Shown here one piece after another: positions 373 to 14,219 of a DNA stretch of 14,219 nt; positions within the stretch are counted from its first letter, which is position 1, and every line of letters starts with the position of its first letter. Made by a program: the position numbers and the translations under genes. The notes beneath the pieces are model-generated. The model saw only the letters and a program-made list of their open reading frames with translations. It searched no databases and was not told the origin of the DNA. Source of the DNA: Nitrosopumilus sp. (GTDB lineage Archaea > Thermoproteota > Nitrososphaeria > Nitrososphaerales > Nitrosopumilaceae); contig JAOTUX010000007.1 in the NCBI GenBank assembly GCA_029863665.1, positions 1 through 14,219 of the forward strand, written 5' to 3'.

Positions 373-530
373 ATTCTATTGTTGTTAAACGATGTACATG
401 TGCCAATAATTCTTTTACAAAAGATGTAGGTATTGGAGTCTGCATGAGATGTGGATTATCTTCATGCTCATGGTACGGATGTTTTGTTTTCGGATGTAAC
501 TGCTCTAGGGCAAAGGTGTTGAAAATATGA
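369..530 (+). CDS. Small Cys-rich (8 Cys in 53 aa) putative zinc-binding protein, absent from the ORF track
   Basis: Hand translation gives MNSIVVKRCTCANNSFTKDVGIGVCMRCGLSSCSWYGCFVFGCNCSRAKVLKI*. The ATG at 369-371 overlaps the upstream stop, and the TGA at 528-530 overlaps the primase ATG at 527 (ATGA at both ends). It exactly fills the gap between two co-directional genes. Confidence 0.5.
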   Translation: MNSIVVKRCTCANNSFTKDVGIGVCMRCGLSSCSWYGCFVFGCNCSRAKVLKI

Positions 531-2725
531 GTGACCATACCATTAAAGAAATCTACAAAAAGCAGGGAATCAACATTGTTCCAATTCCAAAAGGATCTGG
601 TAAAGCACTAAACATCAAGACAGGTTGGAGCAAATACCAGTATGAGATGTTTACAGGTGTAATACCAGATGACCAGGACTTTGCAGTAATTCTGGGAAGA
701 ATATCAGGCAATCTCATAGTACTAGATTTTGACAACTGTGATGATATCAACGAGATTAGTATGATGACACAAAATATTCTAAACAAAACTCTGGTGGTGC
801 GAACAGGGGACGGGTACCACGTCTACTTTAAGATAAATGAATTACCAGTACAGGCAAACACCTTTTTCTCAAAAGGAAAATACAGTATGGAGTTCAAAAG
901 TGATGGTGCGTATGTGGTTGGCGCATCATGCAACCACTATGACAAGGATGAGTCAGGACTGTACGTACTGACTGGCAAAAAATACACCATAATCTCAAAC
1001 ACCACATCAATCTATGATCTAAATGGTACTGCCACACAACTAATTGAGAAATTAAAAAATAATGGATGGATTCCAAAAAACCAAACAAATGGAAACGGGC
1101 ACCATACCATCATTCCAACCTCTGAGCTTGAAAAGGGAAACTGGTTATCTGGAGAGCGATACAACAATGGATTCAAGCTGGCACTAAGACGGTTCCATAT
1201 GGACTGGGAGTATGAAAAAATTCTAAACGAGGCAATAAAGATAAACAATTCATGCAATCCCCCACACAGCAATGTAGAGGTAGAGCGATGGGTAAATGAT
1301 GCGCATTCACAGTTTCAAAAAAACAGAGATGATCCTGAGCAAAAATACTTTAAACCTACAGATGATGAATCCAAGAAAGAAAAGAAAAACGCCAAGGCAC
1401 TAGTTGAGAACACATTACTTACAATCCAAAAGACTCACAATTTCAAGTGTCTGAGGGATTCAGATGAATTGTTGTGGTTTGATGGTAAAATTTACAGGCA
1501 AAATATTGCAGAGCCGCTAATTAAAGAAGAATGCGAGAAATGGATAGAGAACTGTAGCACATTTGATAGATGTGAAGTAATCAACAAGATAAAGGCGATA
1601 AACTATACTGACAGAGCTGAGTTTGACTCTGATCCTGACATTCAAACAGTTGAAAATTGTGTGTTAAATCTAAAGACACTAGAGACCATACAACACTCAC
1701 CATCAAATTTATCATGTGTAATGCTGCCAGTATCATACCATCCTATTGACATCAAGGTGAATACAGATTCCATTCTACAATATTTACATAATACACTGTT
1801 TCTAAAATATCTCACATCATGCTTTACCATAAATAGTAAGCTGGACCAAGAACAATTCTTTACAGTTTTAGAAATAATGGCATCATGTCTGATAAAAAAA
1901 CAGTTTGATAAAGCATTCATGTTTATTGGTTCAGGATCTAATGGTAAATCAGTACTACTTGATTATATAGAATCTCTTCTTGGTAAAGATAATGTCTCTA
2001 ACATTACAATCCATGACATTGAACTGGAACGATTCTCAAAGGCAGAATTATTTGGCAAGATGGCAAATGTATTTGCAGATATTGAAAGTAACGAGCTAAA
2101 AAAGACTGGAAACCTAAAGATTATAATTTCAGGTGACTCTATCACTGCTGAAAAGAAACACCGTCATCCATTCAAGTTCAAACCATACACAAAATTGATC
2201 TTCTCTGCAAATCGATTCCCATCAGTCCATGACCAATCTGATGGTTTCTTTAGAAGATTTGTAATTGTAAATTGGAAACGACAATTTACAGGAGAAGAAA
2301 AGAATCCAAATCTAAGAGAAGAACTAATTGCAGACAATGATGAGCAAAACAAGGTATTTTCTTTACTGGTTTTAATTGCAAGAAATCTTCGCATCCGCGG
2401 CAGATTCAAGCATGAGGACAACATTGAAGCACTACGCAAGCAATGGAATCAAAACAGTGATCCAATAATTCAGTTCATCAATGAGGTGGTAGTAGAGAAG
2501 GAAAATTCAGTGGTATCAAAGCGGGAGGTCTATTCCAGATATTGTGATTTTTGTATAGAACATGAAATTCCAGTTGTAACAATTAAGAGGTTTGGCATGA
2601 TCTTTGGCGAATATTACGAAACTGATCAAAGAAAAGATTCCAGTGGAATCAACAAAAAGTTCTGGATAGATATCCAGCTAAAGGTGCCTGTCATACAAAG
2701 GAGGTTAAAGGATTTTGATGCCTAG
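527..2725 (+). CDS. Bifunctional primase-polymerase (prim-pol) / D5-P4-type superfamily 3 helicase, replication protein of a mobile element
   Basis: The N-terminus carries the prim-pol signatures VLDFDN (DxD) and GDGYHVYF. The C-terminal half carries a P4/D5-type SF3 helicase: Walker A FIGSGSNGKS, Walker B-like NVFADIE, motif C IFSANRFP and arginine finger FFRRFVIVNW. A GGTG Shine-Dalgarno-like string sits 8-13 nt upstream. Confidence 0.9.
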   Translation: MSDHTIKEIYKKQGINIVPIPKGSGKALNIKTGWSKYQYEMFTGVIPDDQDFAVILGRISGNLIVLDFDNCDDINEISMMTQNILNKTLVVRTGDGYHVYFKINELPVQANTFFSKGKYSMEFKSDGAYVVGASCNHYDKDESGLYVLTGKKYTIISNTTSIYDLNGTATQLIEKLKNNGWIPKNQTNGNGHHTIIPTSELEKGNWLSGERYNNGFKLALRRFHMDWEYEKILNEAIKINNSCNPPHSNVEVERWVNDAHSQFQKNRDDPEQKYFKPTDDESKKEKKNAKALVENTLLTIQKTHNFKCLRDSDELLWFDGKIYRQNIAEPLIKEECEKWIENCSTFDRCEVINKIKAINYTDRAEFDSDPDIQTVENCVLNLKTLETIQHSPSNLSCVMLPVSYHPIDIKVNTDSILQYLHNTLFLKYLTSCFTINSKLDQEQFFTVLEIMASCLIKKQFDKAFMFIGSGSNGKSVLLDYIESLLGKDNVSNITIHDIELERFSKAELFGKMANVFADIESNELKKTGNLKIIISGDSITAEKKHRHPFKFKPYTKLIFSANRFPSVHDQSDGFFRRFVIVNWKRQFTGEEKNPNLREELIADNDEQNKVFSLLVLIARNLRIRGRFKHEDNIEALRKQWNQNSDPIIQFINEVVVEKENSVVSKREVYSRYCDFCIEHEIPVVTIKRFGMIFGEYYETDQRKDSSGINKKFWIDIQLKVPVIQRRLKDFDA

Positions 2726-2877: not shown

Positions 2878-3591
2878 TTGACTAGTCGCAAGCACTTTTC
2901 CTGGAAGGAATCCCTTATCCCGCAATCAAAAAGAGCAATACTGATAGAAAAAGACAACAAGCATTTCTACAAAACACCCCAAGGTCATACCTATCCTTCA
3001 GCAACTACCATGCTATCGCAAACCATGTCACCAGAGAAGAAAAACTCTTTGAAGGAATGGAGAAAAAGAGAAACAAAAGCAGATGAGATAACAAAACGTG
3101 CAACAGATATTGGCACATTTGTCCATAAACTAGCCGAAGATTATCTTAACAACAGGTATGATGATACAAGAAACCAAAATAGCATTGAAACACAACATTC
3201 TCAAATAATATGGAAACATTTCAGACAACTGCAACCATTTCTAAACAAGATGAATAACATCTGTGAAACTGAGATTCCGTTATACCATGACTATCTTATG
3301 TTTGGAGGAACGTCCGACTGCATTGCAGAGTATGGTGGAACCCTTAGCATAATTGATTTCAAAACAAGCAGAGCAGAAAAATATGAAGGATACATTGAAG
3401 ATTATTTTCTGCAGGCAACATTGTATTCAATGATGTACCACAATCAAACTGGAATCGCAATCTCACAGATTGTAATTCTAATATCTGGTGAAGATGGAAC
3501 ATCCAGAGAATTTGTAAAAAACATTGATGACTATGTAGACTTGTTGTTTCAAAGAATTTCTCAGTTTAATATTTTGGAGGCTAAAAATTGA
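2878..3591 (+). CDS. PD-(D/E)XK superfamily nuclease (RecB/lambda-exonuclease-like fold; not Cas4)
   Basis: Motifs in order are GGTSDCIAEY (D), LSIIDFKTS (D/ExK) and YFLQATLYSMMY (QxxxY). The N-terminal YPSATTML string is common in phage or plasmid exonucleases. There is no C-terminal 4-Cys cluster. Start is TTG with AGAGGT about 12 nt upstream. Confidence 0.75.
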   Translation: MTSRKHFSWKESLIPQSKRAILIEKDNKHFYKTPQGHTYPSATTMLSQTMSPEKKNSLKEWRKRETKADEITKRATDIGTFVHKLAEDYLNNRYDDTRNQNSIETQHSQIIWKHFRQLQPFLNKMNNICETEIPLYHDYLMFGGTSDCIAEYGGTLSIIDFKTSRAEKYEGYIEDYFLQATLYSMMYHNQTGIAISQIVILISGEDGTSREFVKNIDDYVDLLFQRISQFNILEAKN

Positions 3592-3860
3592 GAGAACCAC
3601 TCCTTGAAAGGTCTTTTGTTGTTACTTGTAAAAATAGACCACCAAAAAATGGCAAAAGTTGCACAGGATTGCTTGCAGGAGGCGCTTGTCGTGGAATTTG
3701 TACAAGATATGCAATCAAGACAAAGTGGGGACAAAAAAAATATGAATTAGGATTGAGGTTTTGCAGTTATTGTAGGGTGTGGTTTGATGATGAGTGTAAA
3801 ATTTGTTGCATATGCTGTAAAAAACGAGTTCGCCACAAAAGACGGGACAAACAAAAATGA
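3588..3860 (+). CDS. Cys-rich zinc-finger protein with a basic C-terminal tail (probable nucleic-acid binding)
   Basis: The 90-aa protein has several Cys pairs (CRGIC, CSYC, CKICCICC) and a tail KKRVRHKRRDKQK. Its TTG start overlaps the upstream stop and its TGA overlaps the downstream ATG (3857-3860), so it appears translationally coupled within the operon. Confidence 0.55.
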   Translation: MREPLLERSFVVTCKNRPPKNGKSCTGLLAGGACRGICTRYAIKTKWGQKKYELGLRFCSYCRVWFDDECKICCICCKKRVRHKRRDKQK

Positions 3861-4324
3861 GTTCAAGATCAGTACAGCATCTTCATTCGATTAATGTTCA
3901 AGATGAGTATGGTACTCCCAAGGAATTATTTCAAAATATCTGCAAAAAACATGACATTTATCCACAAATTGATATCTGTGCTAGTCATACAAACCATGTC
4001 TTACCAAACTATATCACAAAAGAGCAGAATTGTTTTGATCATTCCATAACAAAAGATTTTTTCATGAATCCTCCATATTCGCAAGTCTCCGAGTTTATGG
4101 AATTTGCATATTTGCAACACAAAACAAACAACGTGTCTTGCTTGATATTGACTTATTCCAAGACAGACACCATTTGGTGGCACAAATTTGTGGAAGGCAA
4201 ATCTAAAGTTCACTTTATCAAGGGCAGAATCAGGTTTTTAGATGAATGGGGTATTCCAACTAGCAATGTGGCACCGTATCCCAGCTGCTGGATTGTCTTT
4301 AGAAAAAATAGACATGAAAAGTGA
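3857..4324 (+). CDS. Phage-type DNA N6-adenine methyltransferase (small Dam family), apparently orphan
   Basis: YGTPKELF near the N-terminus, QIDICAS, catalytic FFMNPPYS (NPPY), then TIWWHKFV and FIKGRIRF. This is the order and spacing characteristic of the short phage Dam family. The protein is 155 aa. Confidence 0.85.
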   Translation: MSSRSVQHLHSINVQDEYGTPKELFQNICKKHDIYPQIDICASHTNHVLPNYITKEQNCFDHSITKDFFMNPPYSQVSEFMEFAYLQHKTNNVSCLILTYSKTDTIWWHKFVEGKSKVHFIKGRIRFLDEWGIPTSNVAPYPSCWIVFRKNRHEK

Positions 4325-6103: not shown

Positions 6104-6691
6104 ATGAGTAACAAAACTCAATACCAATTAACACAAGAACAAGCAAAAAAAGCCATCAAAATGTGCCTAGACAATGCGTGGTCATATCTTGAAGATGCTG
6201 ACATGTATATCGCAAACAACAGAACAGAGCATATAGCAATCCCAATTGCATTTGCAATGGAAGAAATCGGAAAGGCGAAAATCATTTATGATAAAATAGA
6301 GAAAAATAATTCAAAAATTCTTTTGTCAAATGATAAAGATGGTATCTACGATCATACAACGAAAATAAAGAAAACAATTTCATTAATTGAACTAGATTTT
6401 GATGATGATGTAGGAGAAGCAGTGATGATAGAACAATTAACTTTTGGTGGCTCTTTTGAATTTGAATATTTTATTGATCAATCAAAAATTTCAGATAAAA
6501 TAAAACAAGAAAATGAATTAAAAGATATAGGAAAACAAGGACATAAGATACGACTTGCAAGTTCATTTGTTGGCTTTGATGCTACCACTAGTGAGCCTAA
6601 AATAAAAAAATCTACAGTAGACTTGACTAAACTCATCAAAGCATTATACCAAATCATAACTGGATATCCCTCTTCATTTAACACCTATTGA
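6104..6691 (+). CDS. AbiV-family (HEPN_AbiV-like) abortive-infection protein homolog
   Basis: The N-terminal LDNAWSYLEDADMYIANNRTEHIAIPIAFAMEEIGKAKIIY matches the hallmark AbiV pattern (nA..ll.dA..L.....A..l...A.EE.GKa). A DHTTKIK string follows. Its 195 aa is close to lactococcal AbiV (about 200 aa). This is motif-level recognition only. Confidence 0.55.
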   Translation: MSNKTQYQLTQEQAKKAIKMCLDNAWSYLEDADMYIANNRTEHIAIPIAFAMEEIGKAKIIYDKIEKNNSKILLSNDKDGIYDHTTKIKKTISLIELDFDDDVGEAVMIEQLTFGGSFEFEYFIDQSKISDKIKQENELKDIGKQGHKIRLASSFVGFDATTSEPKIKKSTVDLTKLIKALYQIITGYPSSFNTY

Positions 6692-6847
6692 CTCTAAAAG
6701 GTAGAAAAATTATTACAACATTAAACTATTAGGTTATGGTATATCTATAAAACAAAATAACAAACAAACCATTTTCTTGATATAGCAATAATTATGAAAT
6801 TATTTTTTCGCTAATAACCTTATTAATCAATTACATGGGGCCAAATT

Positions 6848-7570
6848 ATGAGACAAAATTTAATCTCTTTACAATGTTACTGTGCAAAACCAGAAATTGT
6901 TTTTCTCCCCTTTGAAAACGAAACGGTCTGTAAAATATGCGGTGTGGTTCTACAAAACAATGAATCATCATACAACATAGAGCAAACAGTACCATATGAG
7001 ATGCTCTGCAAGACAAACCTCAATTTACACCAAAGAAAGCAAGTCGGTGGGGATCCACGTGATGAACAAATGATAACATCTACAAAATTTCATACAGAGT
7101 CAGATTCCCTCTTGGCATTCTCTGATGTCTGCCGCAAACTATCCCTTACTAGTGCCATCTCAGAGGACTCTTGGAAATCATTTTGCCATGACACCACAAA
7201 TCTAACAAAGGCAAAAAAGATGTGTCATGCAATATACCGGACTCTACAAAACAATGCAATCCCATATGATGAAAATATAGTTCAAAATATTATCTGTTGC
7301 AGCCTTGGTGTAAAAAACGCATCAGGCCCTAGAGGCATACAATTCAAGACTGATTCCTCTGCATTTACCTCAAAGGAGGTAAAGATGAGATTCTACCTGA
7401 ATTTATCAATTAAACAGGCACAAAATCAGTATGCTATATCTGATGTATCGGCACTGCAGAAAAATTCCAGAAACTATATGAATATCCTGATAGAGTCATT
7501 TCCAAACTCAGATTACAAGACCTTGGCAAAAAAGGCAACAGAGATGGCAAGACTGAGGTGTCTGAATTAA
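6848..7570 (+). CDS. Short TFB/TFIIB-like transcription factor (zinc ribbon plus apparently one cyclin-like repeat)
   Basis: The N-terminal ribbon CYC-x15-CKICGVVL (nt 6875-6952) resembles the TFB Cx2C-x15-17-Cx2CG(l/v)V(l/i) ribbon. Later, LSLTSAISEDSWKSF and KKMCHAIYRTLQNNAIPYDENIVQNI resemble the first cyclin repeat. At 240 aa it is shorter than cellular TFB (about 300 aa). Confidence 0.55.
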   Translation: MRQNLISLQCYCAKPEIVFLPFENETVCKICGVVLQNNESSYNIEQTVPYEMLCKTNLNLHQRKQVGGDPRDEQMITSTKFHTESDSLLAFSDVCRKLSLTSAISEDSWKSFCHDTTNLTKAKKMCHAIYRTLQNNAIPYDENIVQNIICCSLGVKNASGPRGIQFKTDSSAFTSKEVKMRFYLNLSIKQAQNQYAISDVSALQKNSRNYMNILIESFPNSDYKTLAKKATEMARLRCLN

Positions 7571-8676
7571 ACATCTCAACTGAAAATATGGTTCAGACCA
7601 TTCAGCCTGATTCAATTGTGTTGCTTTCAGAAAACATTGGAATTGTGATGGAGACAAATATCTTAAAGTACTCCTCAATGAAAACGCAAGACCTTCCAAT
7701 AGTTAGACTAGGAAAAGTAAATGACAAATTGTATGCCATAAATCACTATGATGTAGTACTTGGATGTAAACAGTCAAAAAATAATGCATTATGCACCATT
7801 GAAGAGTGTAAAAATATCTCAGATATTATAGTACAGCATTTTTGTGATGTACTATCTAGTGATATACTCAACACACCACTAGTTTACAATCTAGTTGATT
7901 CACTCCAAGAGAAATTAAAAACAGACAAGATTACAGTTCTAAAAATTCTTGGAATAGACAAACTCCAGTATTGTAGGTTGTTGATGGCAACTAACCATAT
8001 CTCAGAAGCTGCAATCTCAAAGCTAGAAGAACTGGTAAATGAACTCTCAAAGAGAAAAGGACTAACTGCAATTCAGGCAAGCACTCCAATTTATGTCCTA
8101 GAAAAGATATCTCGAATCACTGATGAATCACAACAAATTCAATTGATACACTTTATTGCGTCTGATCTAAGACCAAAAAGTGATTCAAGATTTTTCTGGA
8201 TGACACCAGAACAAATTGACTCCATAACTCAAATGATAAGACAAAATGCAACTCGTACAGAATATAGAGACGAGTCAACTGTTGCACAATTTGTCTTATC
8301 TGAAAATCTTGGAGAAAAAGAATCATCATCAAACAAAAACAAAAAACCAAAACCATCAAAAAAGACTAGAGAAATTCTTGAGGCCATTCCAAATATACTA
8401 GTCATTCCAGATGAGAAAGGAAACCCAGACATTTTAGTTGATAAAAAAACTGGTACAGTATCAAAAATAGATACATCATCAAACAAAAAAATCATAAAGA
8501 CAAGTCACATCCCATCAAAGAAGCTCTACTCCATACCATTTGATGTTGTAAATTTTCTTGAAATGGAGGGACAAATACGACATAAAAACATCACAGGTAC
8601 TGACAACCTCAAATTGTTCACAGATTCCCAGAAAGATTCTACACAAAGATACACAATATTTTGGAATGTATCATAG
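7558..8676 (+). CDS. Degenerate ParB-like N-terminal domain plus HTH protein with a lysine-rich low-complexity C-terminal region
   Basis: IQPDSIVLLSEN...LPIVRLGKVNDKLYAINHYDVVLGCKQ follows the ParB N-domain layout, but the GxxR box is replaced by NHYDVVLG. TVLKILGIDKLQYCRLLMATNHISEAAISKLEEL is a ParB-type HTH. The GTG start overlaps the upstream gene by 13 nt; an alternative ATG lies at 7588. Confidence 0.4.
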   Translation: MSELNISTENMVQTIQPDSIVLLSENIGIVMETNILKYSSMKTQDLPIVRLGKVNDKLYAINHYDVVLGCKQSKNNALCTIEECKNISDIIVQHFCDVLSSDILNTPLVYNLVDSLQEKLKTDKITVLKILGIDKLQYCRLLMATNHISEAAISKLEELVNELSKRKGLTAIQASTPIYVLEKISRITDESQQIQLIHFIASDLRPKSDSRFFWMTPEQIDSITQMIRQNATRTEYRDESTVAQFVLSENLGEKESSSNKNKKPKPSKKTREILEAIPNILVIPDEKGNPDILVDKKTGTVSKIDTSSNKKIIKTSHIPSKKLYSIPFDVVNFLEMEGQIRHKNITGTDNLKLFTDSQKDSTQRYTIFWNVS

Positions 8677-8679
8677 AAC

Positions 8680-9306
8680 TTGCAAAATAATAGAGATCTA
8701 TTATGGTATAGATGCAACATAAAGAGAAACTCTACAGGCTCAAAAATTCTTGAATCATCATATGTTTCAGGATTTTCTCTTTTAGAGATTTCAAAAAAGA
8801 CCAAAAAACAGTACAGATATACCAAAAAAATAGTTCTAGAGCTGAAATACTCTGGATATCTTGAATCAGAAAGCAAAGGGCGATATTCCATAACTCAGAA
8901 GGGTAGGTGGTTTGTCATATGTCAGAGACTTGGATTGTCTTTTTTGTCATTGTGTTTATTGGCTGAAGTTTATCACAGGGTCAATTCCAATCCAGAATTC
9001 TTTTACCAGTTTTCATCATTTAGGCAGTGTTATGAGACAGGATATGATGAGAATTTTACATATATGGCAATATATCGCAGACAAAACATTTCAAAATCCC
9101 TCAAACATTTGACATCAAGAAATCTAGTGTATGCATTAGGGGATTTTATCAAAATGACAAATACAATGATTGAATTTCTAAAAAAGTATCACCGAGATCT
9201 TGAATCGTTATTTTTGTGGTGCAGTGATATGTATGAAAAATGTATTTGCAATACAATTGAAAATAATAATTTTAATGCCAGTGGTATCTTGCAAGGATCC
9301 AATTAG
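8680..9306 (+). CDS. Winged helix-turn-helix DNA-binding protein (possibly two wHTH units)
   Basis: GFSLLEISKKTKKQYRYTKKIVLELKYSGYLESESKGRYSITQKGRWF is a classic wHTH with a wing hairpin. A second weaker unit lies around ISKSLKHLTSRNLVYALGDFIKMT. The TTG start is 3 nt after the upstream stop, and there is no in-frame ATG before the domain. Confidence 0.45.
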   Translation: MQNNRDLLWYRCNIKRNSTGSKILESSYVSGFSLLEISKKTKKQYRYTKKIVLELKYSGYLESESKGRYSITQKGRWFVICQRLGLSFLSLCLLAEVYHRVNSNPEFFYQFSSFRQCYETGYDENFTYMAIYRRQNISKSLKHLTSRNLVYALGDFIKMTNTMIEFLKKYHRDLESLFLWCSDMYEKCICNTIENNNFNASGILQGSN

Positions 9307-9383
9307 AGTGTCAAAAAATGCTACTTTGATTGGGTCTTTTGGTTTTATTCTATATGTTATGAGTGGTTGTGGAGTTTTTCCAG

Positions 9384-10037
9384 ATGAGAATAGTTTTGAT
9401 ACTAGTAATGTTTGGAGTAGCATCTATCTTTGACTATAAATCAAGAAAAGTTCCTGATGTTATCTGGATTGCTGGTATCAGTACAGGTGGAGTGATGTAT
9501 GTAATTGACTATGAAACATTTTCTGTATACCATGGAGTGAGCATTGTAACCTCTTGCTTTTTTGGTTTTATTTTGTACAGATTTAGGTTTGTCGGGATGG
9601 CAGACCTGTTTGGCATCATATCTGTTAGTGTGATACTACCAGTTCATTATACATTTGTAATGGTTCCAATATTAGGAACTATTTTGGCGCTGATTCTGGT
9701 CGTATCTACAATCATCTTGTACAATGTGACACTCAATGCAATTGACATGATGTCAAAAAGAAGACTATTTGGAGGATTTGCAGGGGAGCCGCCGTACAGA
9801 AAGTTCCTCGCAGTTTTCTTTATTCACAGAAAGAGAGGATACGAGAGATTTGTCATTTCAGCTGAGAGTCAATACCCGGCAATCCCAAAAAACAGGTCAT
9901 TTGTCCTGATATCTAGGAGCAAGGAAATTTCCCAGGTGGTGGGACTCGTGCAGAATGTGCCGCCATTTGTAGTGTTTATGATGATTGGAATGATCTTACT
10001 GTTGTTGCCTGAAATTCTGAATATAGTATTTTCTTAA
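9384..10037 (+). CDS. A24-family aspartic prepilin/preflagellin (archaellin) peptidase, polytopic membrane protein
   Basis: The first catalytic Asp lies in ASIFDYKSRKVPD and the second in a GxGD-like FVGMADLF about 57 residues later. There are several hydrophobic helices. I prefer ATG 9384 (GGAG about 10 nt upstream) over the tracked GTG at 9363. Confidence 0.75.
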   Translation: MRIVLILVMFGVASIFDYKSRKVPDVIWIAGISTGGVMYVIDYETFSVYHGVSIVTSCFFGFILYRFRFVGMADLFGIISVSVILPVHYTFVMVPILGTILALILVVSTIILYNVTLNAIDMMSKRRLFGGFAGEPPYRKFLAVFFIHRKRGYERFVISAESQYPAIPKNRSFVLISRSKEISQVVGLVQNVPPFVVFMMIGMILLLLPEILNIVFS

Positions 10038-10096
10038 TTTAGACTATAAAATTAATTTATAATTGATCCGAGATATTTTGTAATGTCATGACCGGC

Positions 10097-10133
10097 AGGA
10101 TTTGAAGGTTTTTGGTGATTGTTTTGGTACCAA
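10097..10133. repeat. Direct repeat copy 1 (37 bp) upstream of the copper oxidase gene; contains the 10-bp palindrome ttggtaccaa
   Basis: aggatttgaaggtttttggtgattgttttggtaccaa matches 13641-13677 at 33 of 37 positions. The palindrome is at 10124-10133. Confidence 0.7.
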
Positions 10134-10503
10134 CAGGTATGAATTATTATTCTTTTGCATCATTGAAAGTAACTGTACATTCGGTAGTTAATAATATCCT
10201 CTAATCATGTAAAAGTAGATGGCAACCAAAATTACAATAGATAATAACCTTAGTGGAACTTTCATAATTTGCTAAAAAAGAGAATCATAGCTTCAGGTTA
10301 AAGAAAGATTATGTGGATCATTTGGTGAGCATTCTAACTAAAAGTAGATCGTGTTTTATTTTTAAATAATAAAAACTATTTTTTCTAGTAAATTCATAAT
10401 TTCTTATAATTTCTCAAAAAATACTATCTTAATCATACTAGATTTTAGTTGCAGATCATGTTGGATCATAATATATTCACAATAATGCTATATTATACAT
10501 AAA

Positions 10504-13500
10504 ATGACCATACGAGATTTTTACCTAAAGATTGAACAAATTTCAAGTTATAGTCCAGTACACCCTGTTGACAAAGAGCCTCCGGGGGTGGAGTACAGTC
10601 GAGACTGTATGTATGGTGAAGGGCATGAGAATGGAAAAATACCACAAGCCGAAGTAGATGCCAGAACCCTTGACGCAATTGTATACCGGGAATACCTGGA
10701 TAAGGATTTTCTTATTCCAAAACCGGATAAAATGGTAGAATCGGATATCAATGAACCTGTGTTTGACAGTAGGATTGGAACTGTATTGTATGCTAGTCCT
10801 GGACAGACATTAAACATTCATGTTTTAAATGCAGATAACAAACCCCATTCCTTTCACATACATGGACTTGAATTTGGGATAGATTCAGACGGTGCTTGGC
10901 CCTTTGGTACACAAAATGAGGATGGCTCTAGATCAGATAGGATCTGTCCAGGAGAAAAATGGACTTACATCTTTAATGTCAGAGAGGAGATGATAGGGGT
11001 TTGGCCGTTCCATGATCATTTTGGGATGGTAGGAAAAAATATTGATAGAGGTTTGTTTGGAGGACTGATTGTTCAGCCAAAAGGCCAGATCACAATTCCG
11101 GAACTTGAAGTTTTTCCAAGAGAGTTTGAAGATTTGCTAGACAGGTATGTAAGAATCAAGGATATAATTGGTGAAGTTCCACAGCCTAGACCCAGACCAG
11201 ATCCTCCTCCCATATTTGAGAAAGACAGAGTATACATACGCGATCAAGTGGAATTTTTGAAAGAATGGTTGGGTGTTTTTATTGGAAAGCCACCAAAAAA
11301 GAAAAGAAAAACACTTCACGTTCCATTGTTTTTCCACAAAATGAAGAGTCATCAAAGCAAACCTGTTTTTGACACAGGAGACATAGAGGAATTAGGCGGA
11401 GAACACGAGGTTATTTTTAATAATCAGGGAGCCTTTGATTATTTTTGCATATACCATCCCATGATGGAAGGAAAAATCAATGTTGTCCCAGGAGGATCCC
11501 TTCTAGTTACAGTCAACATATTGGATAACCCTCAAATGGGATTTTATCCTCCAATAGTGGATATTGGAATAGGCGGAACTGTGAAATGGGTTAATCAAAG
11601 TCAGTTCCATCATACGGCTACTTCAAAGGAAGGTGCATCATTGGCCACCCATTGTTTTAATGGCAGAGGCTTTGTTGGAAACTCTCCTACCATTGTAGCT
11701 GAAAGTGGCCAGAAAATAAAATGGTATGTATTTAATTTGGATGTTGGTCACGAATGGCACAATTTTCATACACACTCACAAAGATGGAAATTAGGAAATG
11801 AAAACATTGATGTTAGAAGTTTAGGCCCTGCAGAATCATTTGCAGTTGAGACTACCGCACCGCCAGTCCTATTATTTCCAGATAAAGAGATGAATGATCT
11901 GCAAGAATGCAAAGTAAAGCCCAAAGATGCAAAGATATACAGACTCAAAGGAGATTTTGTATTTCACTGCCATGTTCACCATCATATGATGAATGGTATG
12001 GTAGGTTTGGTGCGCTCGTTCCAAAATGTTTGGCTAACTCCGGATATGATTACAAAGTTAAAAAAGACAAGAGGGTTTCCTCTTGATGATGGTACAAATA
12101 ATTGTCCAACACTTCCAGAAAGCTGTTCGAATTTAGATCTTGGGAGATGGGAAGAGATACCAGGTGATCCTGAAGTAACATTAATGCATTCTGTATTGTT
12201 ACCTAAAACACAAAAGGTCTTGTATTGGGGATATACAAGAGCAGATCAATCCAGGCTTTGGGATTATGGAACCAACACCTACTCTTCGCCAGTAAATCAA
12301 CCGGCTAGTTTACCCGGTGAAAATGAAAACACCTCCAATCTTTGGTCTGCAGAACATTCTTTTCTTGATGATACAGAGGGCACTGCGTTGATTCATGGAG
12401 GTTTAACTCAAGGACCAAATGGCACTCCAACTGAATCATTTCTTTTCAGTCCCTCAACACTTCAATGGAGCAAGACTAATTCAACAACGAATCCTAGATT
12501 TTATTCTACAACCATTACATTGGCTGATGGAAAATTAATTACCCTCTATGGTTCTAGTTCAAAATCCATCGAGGTGTATACGCCTGGAGCAGGTTGGGGA
12601 TCTCCAATCAATTTACCCTACCTTAACTACCGATATTATCCGTGGACATTTCTATTACCTGATGGCAGACTCTTTATTGCAGGGCCTGAATCTCCTACTC
12701 ACAGATTTGATTGGCAAAATCCAATAGTGGATCCTAACAACACTTGGAATACAAATGAGGGTACAAGAGATCAGTCTAGTCAAAACGGAACAGCAGTGAT
12801 ATTTCCGTTAAGACCGCCAAATTATGAACCAAGAGTTATGATTATGGGTGGAAGAAACCCAAATTTAATAAAATCATCTGAGACAATAGATCTTTCCTTG
12901 GGTGCCCCATCTTGGTCAAATCTGTCAGATATGAATGAGGCAAGAGGGAATCTCACTTCAGTATTGCTTCCAGATGGCAGAGTATTTGTTGCAGGCGGAA
13001 TACCAGGTGCACCAGGTGTGAACGATGGAGGTCCATCTGAGATATTTGATCCTCAAAATCCGAATGATGGATGGCAATTGGGACCAATAATGAAGTATCC
13101 GAGAAATTACCACTCTTCAATGATTTTATTGCCAGATGGTAGTATTCTAGCAGGAGGAGATCCTAGACAAGCAGGAAATCCAACTCCTCATGAAAGATAT
13201 TATCCTGGTTACTTTAACAAAACTAGACCACAAATTACAAACATTCCAAACACTACTGTAAACTATGGAAATAATTTTGATGTGCAAACTCCAAATTCAC
13301 CAGACATTACAGAAGTAGTTTTGATGTATCCTGGTGCTGTAACTCATAGCTTTAACATGACTCAGAGAATAATAGAATGTGAGATTGTAAATAATGTTGG
13401 AGGGATTGTACGGGTAAAAGCCCCAACAAATGGCAATATTGCACCACCCGGACACTATCTTGTTTTTATTCTTGATGCAAACAGAATACCTTCTACTGGT

Positions 13501-13524
13501 GAATGGATACGTCTTAGAAATTAG
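10504..13524 (+). CDS. Fusion protein: two-domain multicopper oxidase (ceruloplasmin-like cupredoxin pair) plus blue-copper motifs plus galactose/glyoxal-oxidase-like beta-propeller with DUF1929-type C-terminal domain
   Basis: The MCO ligand motifs are HSFHIHG (aa 115-121), WPFHDH (167-172), HNFHTH (419-424) and HCHVHHHMMNGM (488-499, HCH-x3-H-x4-M). A type 1 Cu loop FCIYHPMMEG sits at aa 314-323. The galactose-oxidase-like strings are PRFYSTTITLADGK (664-677), NYHSSMILLPDGSILAGG (868-885), AVTHSFNMTQR (945-955) and PPGHYLVFILDANRIPSTGEWIRL (981-1004). An in-frame TAA lies 18 nt upstream of the ATG, and there is no signal peptide. Confidence 0.9.
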   Translation: MTIRDFYLKIEQISSYSPVHPVDKEPPGVEYSRDCMYGEGHENGKIPQAEVDARTLDAIVYREYLDKDFLIPKPDKMVESDINEPVFDSRIGTVLYASPGQTLNIHVLNADNKPHSFHIHGLEFGIDSDGAWPFGTQNEDGSRSDRICPGEKWTYIFNVREEMIGVWPFHDHFGMVGKNIDRGLFGGLIVQPKGQITIPELEVFPREFEDLLDRYVRIKDIIGEVPQPRPRPDPPPIFEKDRVYIRDQVEFLKEWLGVFIGKPPKKKRKTLHVPLFFHKMKSHQSKPVFDTGDIEELGGEHEVIFNNQGAFDYFCIYHPMMEGKINVVPGGSLLVTVNILDNPQMGFYPPIVDIGIGGTVKWVNQSQFHHTATSKEGASLATHCFNGRGFVGNSPTIVAESGQKIKWYVFNLDVGHEWHNFHTHSQRWKLGNENIDVRSLGPAESFAVETTAPPVLLFPDKEMNDLQECKVKPKDAKIYRLKGDFVFHCHVHHHMMNGMVGLVRSFQNVWLTPDMITKLKKTRGFPLDDGTNNCPTLPESCSNLDLGRWEEIPGDPEVTLMHSVLLPKTQKVLYWGYTRADQSRLWDYGTNTYSSPVNQPASLPGENENTSNLWSAEHSFLDDTEGTALIHGGLTQGPNGTPTESFLFSPSTLQWSKTNSTTNPRFYSTTITLADGKLITLYGSSSKSIEVYTPGAGWGSPINLPYLNYRYYPWTFLLPDGRLFIAGPESPTHRFDWQNPIVDPNNTWNTNEGTRDQSSQNGTAVIFPLRPPNYEPRVMIMGGRNPNLIKSSETIDLSLGAPSWSNLSDMNEARGNLTSVLLPDGRVFVAGGIPGAPGVNDGGPSEIFDPQNPNDGWQLGPIMKYPRNYHSSMILLPDGSILAGGDPRQAGNPTPHERYYPGYFNKTRPQITNIPNTTVNYGNNFDVQTPNSPDITEVVLMYPGAVTHSFNMTQRIIECEIVNNVGGIVRVKAPTNGNIAPPGHYLVFILDANRIPSTGEWIRLRN

Positions 13525-13640
13525 ACCCGAAATGCATCATTACAGAATTGAATCGTTTGGTATGATATTAATCGTGATTCAGGTTAAATTCCATAATAGG
13601 GAATTGCATTCTTAGTTTAGTTCTCTAATTCAAGACTGAT

Positions 13641-13677
13641 AGAATTTGAAGGTTATGGGTGATTATTTTGGTACCAA
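13641..13677. repeat. Direct repeat copy 2 (37 bp) downstream of the copper oxidase gene; overlaps a perfect 20-bp palindrome
   Basis: agaatttgaaggttatgggtgattattttggtaccaa matches 10097-10133 at 33 of 37 positions. ttattttggtaccaaaataa (13663-13682) is a perfect palindrome centred on GGTACC. Confidence 0.7.
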
Positions 13678-13913
13678 AATAACTTTCATGTTATAATAAT
13701 TTCTTGAATTTTTTTAGTTATCTAATTCCTTGTAGAAATTTCAGTAAAAATATCCTTCTTTTATCAAAATTTCTCATACCATTTTGATTTCATTTGGGTA
13801 AATTCTGGTCACTATCACAAGAAAAGCAGTCAGGAGTACTGGATAAAACAAGAAACTTTTTGGGACAAACAAATGCCAGCATCTCTTGTTGTTCCCTAAA
13901 AGTTCCAATATCA

Positions 13914-14219
13914 ATGGATGTAAAATCTGCAATCCAAACAATTCCGGGATTGATTTCATCTACACCCGAAGCAATTCGCTCATTTGAGATATGGTGGGAC
14001 GGAAAACAAAAGCAGCTAAGGTATGTTTTATCTGCACAAAACAATCTAGATCTGGCAAACTACAAAATATCTTTTCAGAATGTGTATCCCAACGTATCTT
14101 TTGTATCTCAACAGGAAACTATTCCTGAATGGTTCTCTCCACATTCATCCTATGAAATATTTGACGTATCACTCCAACATGGCCATTATTCCACTATATT
14201 TGATATTGCAACACATCAG
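13914..14219 (+). CDS. Hypothetical protein, N-terminal 102 codons (3' end outside the window)
   Basis: From ATG 13914 the frame is open to the last base: MDVKSAIQTIPGLISSTPEAIRSFEIWWDGKQKQLRYVLSAQNNLDLANYKISFQNVYPNVSFVSQQETIPEWF... It is absent from the track because no stop is reached. The composition is non-repetitive and protein-like. I recognise no motif. Confidence 0.5.
   Translation, partial: MDVKSAIQTIPGLISSTPEAIRSFEIWWDGKQKQLRYVLSAQNNLDLANYKISFQNVYPNVSFVSQQETIPEWFSPHSSYEIFDVSLQHGHYSTIFDIATHQ

Follow-up and report, generated by a model that had tools for sequence, protein, structure and literature searches.

Introduction

Conjugative elements of thaumarchaea that encode primase-helicase replicases integrate in the gene for tRNA-Pro(TGG), with attachment (att) sites that run from the 3' end of the tRNA gene to the T-loop (PMC6563490, Table S2). 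NCAV2-E1/NitIsl-E1 are found in tRNA-Pro(TGG), and the median att length is 17 bp (Krupovic et al. 2019; PMC6563490). Repeated use of a tRNA site gives arrays, as noted for archaeal elements, and multicopper oxidases have been noted as cargo of thaumarchaeal mobile elements, without a described mechanism of capture (PMC6563490). Here we analyze a 14,219-nt stretch of DNA from Nitrosopumilus sp. (contig JAOTUX010000007.1; hereafter the window), in which two direct repeats bracket a copper oxidase gene inside what appears to be such a conjugative element.

Small cassettes separated by repeated spacers of 50-80 bp, and varying between close relatives, are known from the additive flexible genomic islands beside tRNA genes of marine bacteria and from the PeSL cassettes of T4-type phages. 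The bacterial islands usually retain an integrase next to the tRNA gene, and the PeSLs, or 'mobile regulatory cassettes', are promoter-plus-stem-loop units that recombine by homology. At the att sites of bacterial integrative-conjugative elements (ICEs), cis-mobilizable elements (CIMEs) and tandem accretion have been described for ICESt1/ICESt3 of Streptococcus thermophilus (PMC5704250, citing Pavlovic 2004 and Bellanger 2011), and the capture of cargo by a conjugative element is a documented outcome (PMC5704250).

The locus in the window has much in common with the thaumarchaeal ICEs. Like their attL and attR sites (PMC6563490), its repeats have a core that runs from the tRNA 3' end to the T-loop, and they flank mobile DNA in direct orientation; the backbone around them likewise carries genes of the primase-helicase, TFIIB-like, ParB-like, prepilin-peptidase and VirD4/TraG types. 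In contrast to those att sites, however, the repeats bracket one cargo gene within the element rather than the element itself, they correspond to the GGG isoacceptor, and they are 48-60 nt long, because a 27-nt arm that is not derived from a tRNA is conserved between neighbouring units. From these comparisons, we think it probable that the repeats are attachment sites of integrative DNA that targets tRNA-Pro(GGG) in Nitrosopumilus, and that the oxidase gene is an integrase-less cargo cassette lodged in a slot of the conjugative element.

The repeats contain the 3' end of tRNA-Pro(GGG)

The two copies of the repeat (AGGATTTGAAGGTTTTTGGTGATTGTTTTGGTACCAA at 10097-10133 and AGAATTTGAAGGTTATGGGTGATTATTTTGGTACCAA at 13641-13677) share one orientation, are identical at 33 of 37 positions and start 3544 nt apart, in agreement with a preliminary description of the locus. 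A degenerate pattern for the 37-mer matched these two sites alone in the window, as had been claimed, and it matched in 0 of 200 dinucleotide shuffles. The similarity continues leftward past the start first noted, over 48 nt at 83% (10086-10133 and 13630-13677) or, with one gap, over 53 nt (10081-10133 and 13626-13677). Each copy also holds the dyad that had been reported: TTGGTACCAA in copy 1 (10124-10133) is perfect over 10 bp, and TTATTTTGGTACCAAAATAA in copy 2 (13663-13682), with all 20 bp paired perfectly, reaches 5 nt past the end coordinate originally given. The repeats do enclose the oxidase gene only, as other open reading frames of at least 60 aa between them are nested in or overlap the oxidase frame. 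Both copies had been placed upstream of genes on the + strand. This holds for copy 1, which is followed by a 370-nt leader, but the distance for copy 2 needs correction: it ends 116 nt, and not 237 nt, before the gene for a TraG/VirD4-type coupling ATPase, because this gene most likely starts at TTG 13794 rather than at ATG 13914.

ARAGORN finds no tRNA in the window, and the one match to Rfam is sub-threshold and lies elsewhere in it; the tRNA origin of the repeats became apparent only once related loci were compared. Public metagenome contigs were scanned with the 20-mer GGTGATTNTTTTGGTACCAA, which gave 33 loci, and a scan of genomes gave 11 (loci are denoted by L and a number). An extended unit of ~60 nt is common to the window and ~20 of the 33 metagenome loci, and is present in 6 of the 11 genome loci, all of them in Nitrosopumilus or Nitrosopumilales genomes; in total, ~25 other Nitrosopumilales contigs or genomes carry it. 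The other matches (~13 of 33 and 5 of 11) were discarded as chance matches in coding DNA of unrelated organisms, with the 20-mer alone in common. Two motif patterns gave 0 matches in the viral contigs of IMG/VR.

A tRNA-Pro(GGG) gene is found by ARAGORN in six of these loci (L012, L022, L026, L030, L032 and L044) and ends in ...GCAGGTTCAAATCCTGCCGGTCCCA. The reverse complement of this end, TGGGACCGGCAGGATTTGAA, is the left part of the unit, matching at 20/20 positions in many units, 17/17 in copy 1 and 13/17 in copy 2. Past the heptamer ATTTGAA, what follows is the remainder of the tRNA (CCTGCGA...) in some cases and the arm of the unit (GGTTTTTGG...) in others. Moreover, acceptor-stem variants of the local tRNA recur in the local att units of L012, L032 and L026 (at 2272); in L032, GGGATTGGCAGG is present in both tRNA and att. 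The units lie downstream of the tRNA-Pro(GGG) gene, in its sense, at 6/6 loci that hold the gene. Three Nitrosopumilales genomes have a conserved RIO-kinase-like host gene whose stop codon directly adjoins the outermost unit (L044, which is a Nitrosopumilus chromosome of 1.7 Mb; L047, the same contig as L032; and L050). Taken together, these alignments show that each repeat owes its left part to the 3' end of tRNA-Pro(GGG), and, judged by its layout, the anatomy of the arrays is that of attR-type junctions of elements integrating in the 3' part of a tRNA gene. In the preliminary description, occurrence at many unrelated intergenic sites was to mark the motif as a generic repeat. The sites are indeed many, but they are not unrelated: each belongs either to an array linked to tRNA-Pro(GGG) or to the element's cargo slot.

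Mappable junctions fall at the T-loop heptamer

Loci L009 and L029 come from one 20-kb contig with a backbone ~72% identical to window positions 6736-10132 and 82% identical to positions 13608-14219. Instead of the oxidase gene, L009 has a 1.09-kb segment between both repeats, which carries a gene for a Kazal/Kunitz/DUF4377 protein on the opposite strand. At copy 1, 65 of the 66 positions aligned up to 10102 (...GACCGGCAGGATT) match between the window and L009; divergence sets in at 10103, and the two arms have 8 differences in 32 positions. At copy 2, the divergence lasts until 13643 and gives way to near identity from ATTTGAAGG on; the tRNA-like part of this copy reads GGTCGGCAGGATTTGAA in L009, unlike that of the window, and the arm to its right is common to both. 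This right-hand arm is nearly identical in L009, L021 and L029, and ~50 nt of common flank then continues. A third pair of loci, L034 and L035, is >99% identical for 250 nt up to ...GAGATTAGAA and different from the next base. Thus, in what is a small sample, alignment shows all three mappable junctions in or at the T-loop complement ATT(T/A)GAA.

The tRNA-derived part of copy 1 is identical in the window and L009, which places it on the backbone side, and the copy 1 arm differs from the L009 arm at the same place, which suggests that it travels with the cassette. With three junctions at the heptamer, each cassette would consist of an arm, a gene and a tRNA-like end (Table 1). Such junctions are as expected for a crossover by a tyrosine integrase, between a circular P-O-P' site and a resident site, with the crossover in O. 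Window positions 10073-13687 are the exact extent of the Logan contig L004, the ends of which may reflect branching of a k=31 graph at 10103 and 13657, if an L009-like variant co-occurs in the sample.

Table 1. Positions of the repeat parts, the cassette and the backbone genes in the window.
Feature	Position	Strand	Remarks
D5-type primase-helicase	527-2725		
PD-(D/E)XK nuclease	2878-3591		
Dam methylase	3857-4324		
AbiV-HEPN protein	6104-6691		
TFIIB-zinc-ribbon protein	6848-7570		
372-aa protein of unknown family ('ParB-like')	7558-8676		no PDB sequence match
wHTH protein	8680-9306		
PPep, prepilin-peptidase-like membrane protein	9363-10037	+	last backbone gene left of cargo slot; weak Pfam Peptidase_A24 match
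Copy 1, tRNA-derived part GACCGGCAGGATTTGAA	10090-10106	-	17/17 to tRNA-Pro(GGG): T-loop, T-stem 3' strand and most of acceptor 3' strand, reverse complement
Copy 1, putative crossover (overlap) region ATTTGAA, complement of T-loop TTCAAAT	10100-10106	.	window and L009 diverge from 10103
Copy 1, 27-nt non-tRNA arm GGTTTTTGGTGATTGTTTTGGTACCAA, with dyad TTGGTACCAA	10107-10133	.	assigned to oxidase cassette
Oxidase cassette: arm, 370-nt AT-rich leader, gene, trailer, degenerate tRNA-like end	10103-13646	+	unit of 3544 nt
Cargo oxidase gene, 1006 aa	10504-13524	+	Pfam Cu-oxidase_3, Cu-oxidase_2, Glyoxal_oxid_N, GO-like_E_set
Copy 2, degenerate tRNA-like part GACTGATAGAATTTGAA	13634-13650	-	13/17 to tRNA-Pro(GGG); assigned to oxidase cassette
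Copy 2, putative crossover region ATTTGAA	13644-13650	.	similarity of window and L009 resumes here
Copy 2, arm GGTTATGGGTGATTATTTTGGTACCAA, with 20-bp palindrome 13663-13682	13651-13682	.	assigned to TraG-side backbone
TraG/VirD4-type coupling ATPase, 5' part	13794-14219	+	cut by contig end; first backbone gene right of slot

The slot between the genes for PPep and TraG varies among other related elements as well. It holds one unrelated gene in L055 and 8 kb of other cargo with no unit in L053 and L062; in L052, a degenerate unit follows PPep and the other cargo amounts to 7.5 kb. Nothing is inserted in L056, where 149 nt separate the two genes, or in L057-L061, where 39 nt do; the latter are from the same sample series as the window's twins, and relative to L057 window positions 10048-13793 are extra. 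The twins of the window come from the read sets ERZ27296337, ERZ27296398, JGI 3300022209 and SRR7132224. Side by side, these loci show the inter-repeat segment replaced in one related element and absent in others. The preliminary description had proposed a search for genomes with an empty site, that is, with a single copy and no oxidase gene. Cargo-free junctions do exist (L056 and L057-L061), but none retains a single copy, the unit being wholly absent there, and exact-protein look-ups for an empty site with the oxidase and PPep returned near-identical copies of the window only. The slot itself was also weighed as the attP of the element. This idea was given up, since L053, L055 and L056 keep PPep and TraG contiguous while integrated in long chromosomal contigs, and L056 has its integration at tRNA-Pro(TGG), on the other end.

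A shorter direct repeat is also present around copy 2. The 16-nt sequence TTTAGTT(C/A)TCTAATTC occurs at 13616-13631 and 13713-13728 (15/16 identical) and encloses 97 nt that include copy 2 and its right flank. L052 has a single copy of this 16-mer and lacks the 97 nt, which suggests that the short repeat mediated a deletion or insertion.

Arrays of units in Nitrosopumilales chromosomes

A profile built from the units was used to find further copies within the same loci. It revealed arrays of 5 units in 5.6 kb in L024, 4 units in L026 and 3 in L022, with one orientation per locus and 1-3 cargo genes between units. The cargo of the arrays includes genes for plastocyanin-like, 5'-nucleotidase, methyltransferase, DprA, phosphoribosyltransferase, MBL-hydrolase and formylglutamate-amidohydrolase proteins, which lie in either orientation relative to the units (for example, in L024). 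No integrase or replication genes were found among the chromosomal array cassettes examined.

An alignment of 31 unique units from other contigs defines the unit further. The arm, TTTTTGGTGATTATTTTGGTACCAA, is at least 90% conserved across the 31 units. To its left is a block AGGATT(A/T)GAA(G/T)G, with 15 nt that are more variable further left, and to its right is the weakly conserved AGGYGTGAAAAT. Of the extended palindrome, the left half alone is conserved across units, and the right half varies after CCAA. Single-strand DNA folds of 4 units were no better than those of shuffled sequence (z-scores 0.46, -1.34, 0.13 and -0.38). A small RNA, a C/D-box RNA or a coding unit was considered and rejected on inspection by eye: there are no box motifs, the differences between units are not mainly synonymous, and no fold is significant. 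Many contigs (L004, L021, L026, L029, L031, L035 and L038) begin or end within a few tens of bases of a unit, which fits assembly graphs that branch at polymorphic junctions, with several cassette variants coexisting in the same samples.

Some loci hold units of a second class, which keep the start of the arm, GTTTTTGGTGATTATTTTGG, but have CCTCTTAGACTAGAA as their left part instead of the tRNA end and contain no GGTACC (L022 6251-6294 and 938-981, L026 7453-7491, L031 169-252 and L051 393-476). They occur directly 3' of an intact tRNA-Pro(GGG) gene, stacked beside full units, and may be decayed att sites, a second type of site, or pieces of a longer duplicated att.

Two further observations concern the cargo genes. 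DprA-like and phosphoribosyltransferase-like genes recur in different tRNA-Pro(GGG) arrays: they are adjacent in L024 (1652-2344 and 993-1646), a DprA-like gene is also present in L050 (149-835) and a phosphoribosyltransferase-like gene in L032 (3126-3737). They may form a two-gene module, perhaps for defence. In addition, att-bounded cargo is often predicted to be secreted or metal-related, examples being a plastocyanin-like protein, a His/Met-rich protein of 71 aa, a protein resembling Kazal/Kunitz inhibitors and an MBL hydrolase whose N-terminus is signal-like (L026 955-2061, L021 67-282, L009 5466-6449, and L044 3909-4946 and 5419-6369).

The oxidase cargo

The enclosed gene had been described as a copper oxidase. 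This is correct as far as it goes, but the encoded protein is a fusion, in which multicopper-oxidase cupredoxin domains are joined to a galactose/glyoxal-oxidase-like kelch propeller and an E-set domain. The family is widespread (939 matches), and the architecture is also present in Nitrosomonas and other bacteria; most homologues are ~100 aa longer than the window protein. The closest homologue (L005, 74% identical) has unrelated neighbours and no repeats, and a second (L006, 58%) has other neighbours too. The repeats were therefore ruled out as a property of the oxidase gene. An oxidase gene kept in related genomes without any flanking repeat had been expected to count against the cassette. 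Such a gene exists in L005, yet the refutation does not follow: its lack of repeats shows that they are part of the insertion site and the cassette system, not of the gene, which fits the view of them as att sites.

The conjugative backbone

The window is a whole 14.2-kb metagenome contig of ~34% G+C. Its gene set is that described for thaumarchaeal integrative-conjugative elements (PMC6563490), and, judging by this content, its backbone is a thaumarchaeal conjugative element. The order TFIIB-like protein, 372-aa protein, wHTH protein, PPep, cargo, TraG is kept in L009, L052, L053, L055, L056 and L057, and homologues of the peptidase and primase sit in Nitrosopumilus contigs of up to 2.4 Mb. 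The match to Pfam Peptidase_A24 is stronger in the PPep orthologues of L009 and L052.

The part of the TraG gene in the window has 82-83% nucleotide identity to the full-length genes of L021 (551-3706) and L057 (6727-9873), and the L021 protein matches Pfam TrwB_AAD_bind and TraG-D_C. The N-terminus GKFWSLSQEKQ is kept in the full-length TraG of L021 and L057, which is why the TTG codon, 120 nt before the first ATG, is the most likely start in the window. A conserved TTTTATCAAAA box lies ~35 nt 5' of this start and could be a promoter of its own for TraG in cargo-bearing elements. Elsewhere in the backbone, the AbiV-type HEPN protein and the Dam methylase, both kept in the relative L053, may serve in defence or anti-defence.

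Discussion

How could a single cargo gene come to lie between att-like sites within a conjugative element? Read on the + strand of the window, the unit would consist of a tRNA 3'-end fragment (the P' side), the heptamer ATTTGAA as the site of crossover, and a 27-nt arm with the GGTACC dyad (the P side). Cassettes may be inserted, excised and exchanged by a tyrosine integrase that acts in trans and cuts within the T-loop heptamer, and the conserved arm and dyad, given the conservation of the arm, could be the part that binds protein, either the integrase or an accessory factor. The block of att, cassette and att may have reached the element from a chromosomal tRNA-Pro(GGG) array, or by accretion and excision with non-cognate att pairs, and the oxidase gene would then travel with the conjugative element. 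This model predicts the junction ...CAAGACTGATAGA-ATTTGAA-GGTTTTTGGTGATTGTTTTGGTACCAAC... for a circular cassette and ...GTCATGACCGGCAGG-ATTTGAA-GGTTATGGGTGATTATTTTGG... for the single-att product. The att-like or tandem-integration origin already suggested in the preliminary description thus gains support from the tRNA 3' end, the same-orientation arrays, the swap in L009, the empty junctions and the breakpoints in the heptamer. As far as sequence can tell, the sites in the window agree with att sites of tRNA-integrating elements in every testable respect except for a cognate integrase.

Several results weigh against this interpretation. Scans with Pfam and PHROGs of ~45 proteins of the window, arrays and relatives found no integrase in the window or in any array locus examined, and at the tRNA-proximal ends of L022, L026 and L044 there are host or cargo genes and no IntI-type integrase. 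One candidate is present in L056, the primase of which is 84% identical to that of the window: directly after tRNA-Pro(TGG) there is a 440-aa tyrosine-recombinase-like protein with sub-threshold matches to the Pfam families Phage_integrase and SAM-like and, read by eye, plausible R...R...W...Y motifs. This candidate is weakly supported, with no PDB sequence match, and the L056 element targets the TGG isoacceptor, not GGG. The 'excised' state with a single att (PPep-att-TraG) was not found among the relatives examined, and because the empty relatives have no unit at all, the interpretation does not account for the entry of the first att into the element. With a degenerate tRNA-like part in copy 2 (13/17) and the final 3 nt of the tRNA missing from copy 1, no functional tRNA would be rebuilt, and both sites would be secondary, used for cassette exchange only, or relics. 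Finally, the arm is better conserved than the tRNA-derived core, a pattern that att sites seldom show and that may hint at a further function.

Part of this evidence can be read in another way, in which the units are relic att sites on which a recombinase no longer acts and which now serve as 50-60 bp of 'portable homology'; ordinary homologous recombination would exchange cassettes of elements with those of chromosomal arrays, or deletion between repeats would remove them. The lack of an integrase near any array examined is as this would predict, and so are the degenerate core of copy 2 and the degenerate dyads of copy 1 in L009 and of the unit in L052. The stacked partial units beside the tRNA in L022, L031 and L051 resemble decay products, and the 16-nt repeat around the 97 nt missing from L052 suggests repeat-mediated deletion. 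We nevertheless consider relic sites unlikely, since all three mapped breakpoints are in or at one heptamer rather than spread over the unit, and conservation of the arm stays at 90% or more where the backbones are only ~70% identical, which argues for selection on the sequence itself.

Conservation of the arm, the best-conserved part of the unit, would also suit a different role, in which the GGTACC dyad is an operator, a parS-like or an oriT-like site for a protein of the element (wHTH, ParB-like or TraG) and its duplication serves regulation or DNA processing. Perfect palindromes of 10-20 bp are typical of sites for dimeric proteins, and copy 2 is kept upstream of TraG in L009, L021, L029 and L038. 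However, L056 and L057-L061 lack the motif despite having the same regulators (wHTH and ParB-like) as well as PPep and TraG, and the motif is abundant in chromosomal arrays, where no scanned cassette gene is homologous to those proteins. No dyad occurs without a tRNA 3' fragment fused to it, conservation of the extended palindrome is limited to its left half, and the genes between units are found in either orientation, that of L009 being on the opposite strand. The binding site for a dimeric regulator proposed in the preliminary description is thus not supported, and we regard sites of this group as very improbable. The layout of the arrays, with same-orientation repeats separating 1-3 genes in up to 5 units, instead recalls an integron, in which the units would be attC-like sites and single-stranded hairpin cassettes would be captured at attI by an IntI-type integrase. 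Yet there is no integrase or attI-like end beside any array examined, and the lack of a significant single-strand fold makes an attC-type mechanism unlikely. The R'' and R' ends (RYYYAAC and GTTRRRY) were not seen by eye, no formal scan having been made, the cassette genes have long leaders and mixed orientations, and the core is a tRNA 3' end. An archaeal integron in the strict sense therefore seems scarcely credible.

If the repeats are att sites for tRNA-Pro(GGG), as we favor, CIMEs are a close bacterial counterpart. Att-type sites flank a segment that has no integration or transfer genes, with the oxidase as its sole gene call, and the segment lies in tandem with or beside a conjugative element, as CIMEs do. 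In these respects the oxidase segment fits a cis-mobilizable element; the evidence for its co-transfer comes from its location and is circumstantial. Unlike CIMEs, the cassettes have an archaeal host, are 0.5-3.5 kb long with one to three genes, and occur in arrays, and the att-flanked segment in the window is internal to the conjugation module of the element. The cassettes examined showed no traces of mobility genes. Integrons share with these loci both the arrays, in which sites of one orientation lie between single cargo genes, and the occupation of one slot by different cassettes in related backbones, but here there is no adjacent IntI, attI or Pc, no hairpin attC, a core made of a tRNA fragment, and mixed gene orientation. 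The Nitrosopumilus units also differ from PeSLs in containing a tRNA end and having no fold, and from additive islands in that no integrase was seen beside the tRNA. In the literature searched, we found neither the precise unit, nor the mapped crossover, nor a link between the tRNA-Pro(GGG) hot spot and the cargo slot. The class of mechanism, att-flanked modules without an integrase, is thus familiar, and the archaeal variant with an integron-like array layout is new.

Ammonia-oxidising archaea depend on copper enzymes, and the locus offers a testable mechanism, in which the att unit and the slot of the conjugative element are defined and the crossover heptamer is mapped, as a route for the spread of a copper oxidase. 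The region downstream of tRNA-Pro(GGG) is a hot spot of the same units in several Nitrosopumilales genomes and in metagenomes of several projects. More tentatively, and with considerable doubt, the cassettes could form an integron-like but mechanistically distinct platform, in which they remain active at the tRNA-Pro(GGG) heptamer through an integrase in trans and shuttle between the chromosomal array and the slot of the conjugative element. Were they actively mobilized, this would be an archaeal counterpart of the bacterial cassette platforms, and an integron-like platform would give ammonia-oxidising archaea a dedicated route for the exchange of copper enzymes and secreted proteins. In that case, the conserved unit would also provide a simple sequence tag by which their flexible gene pool could be mined.

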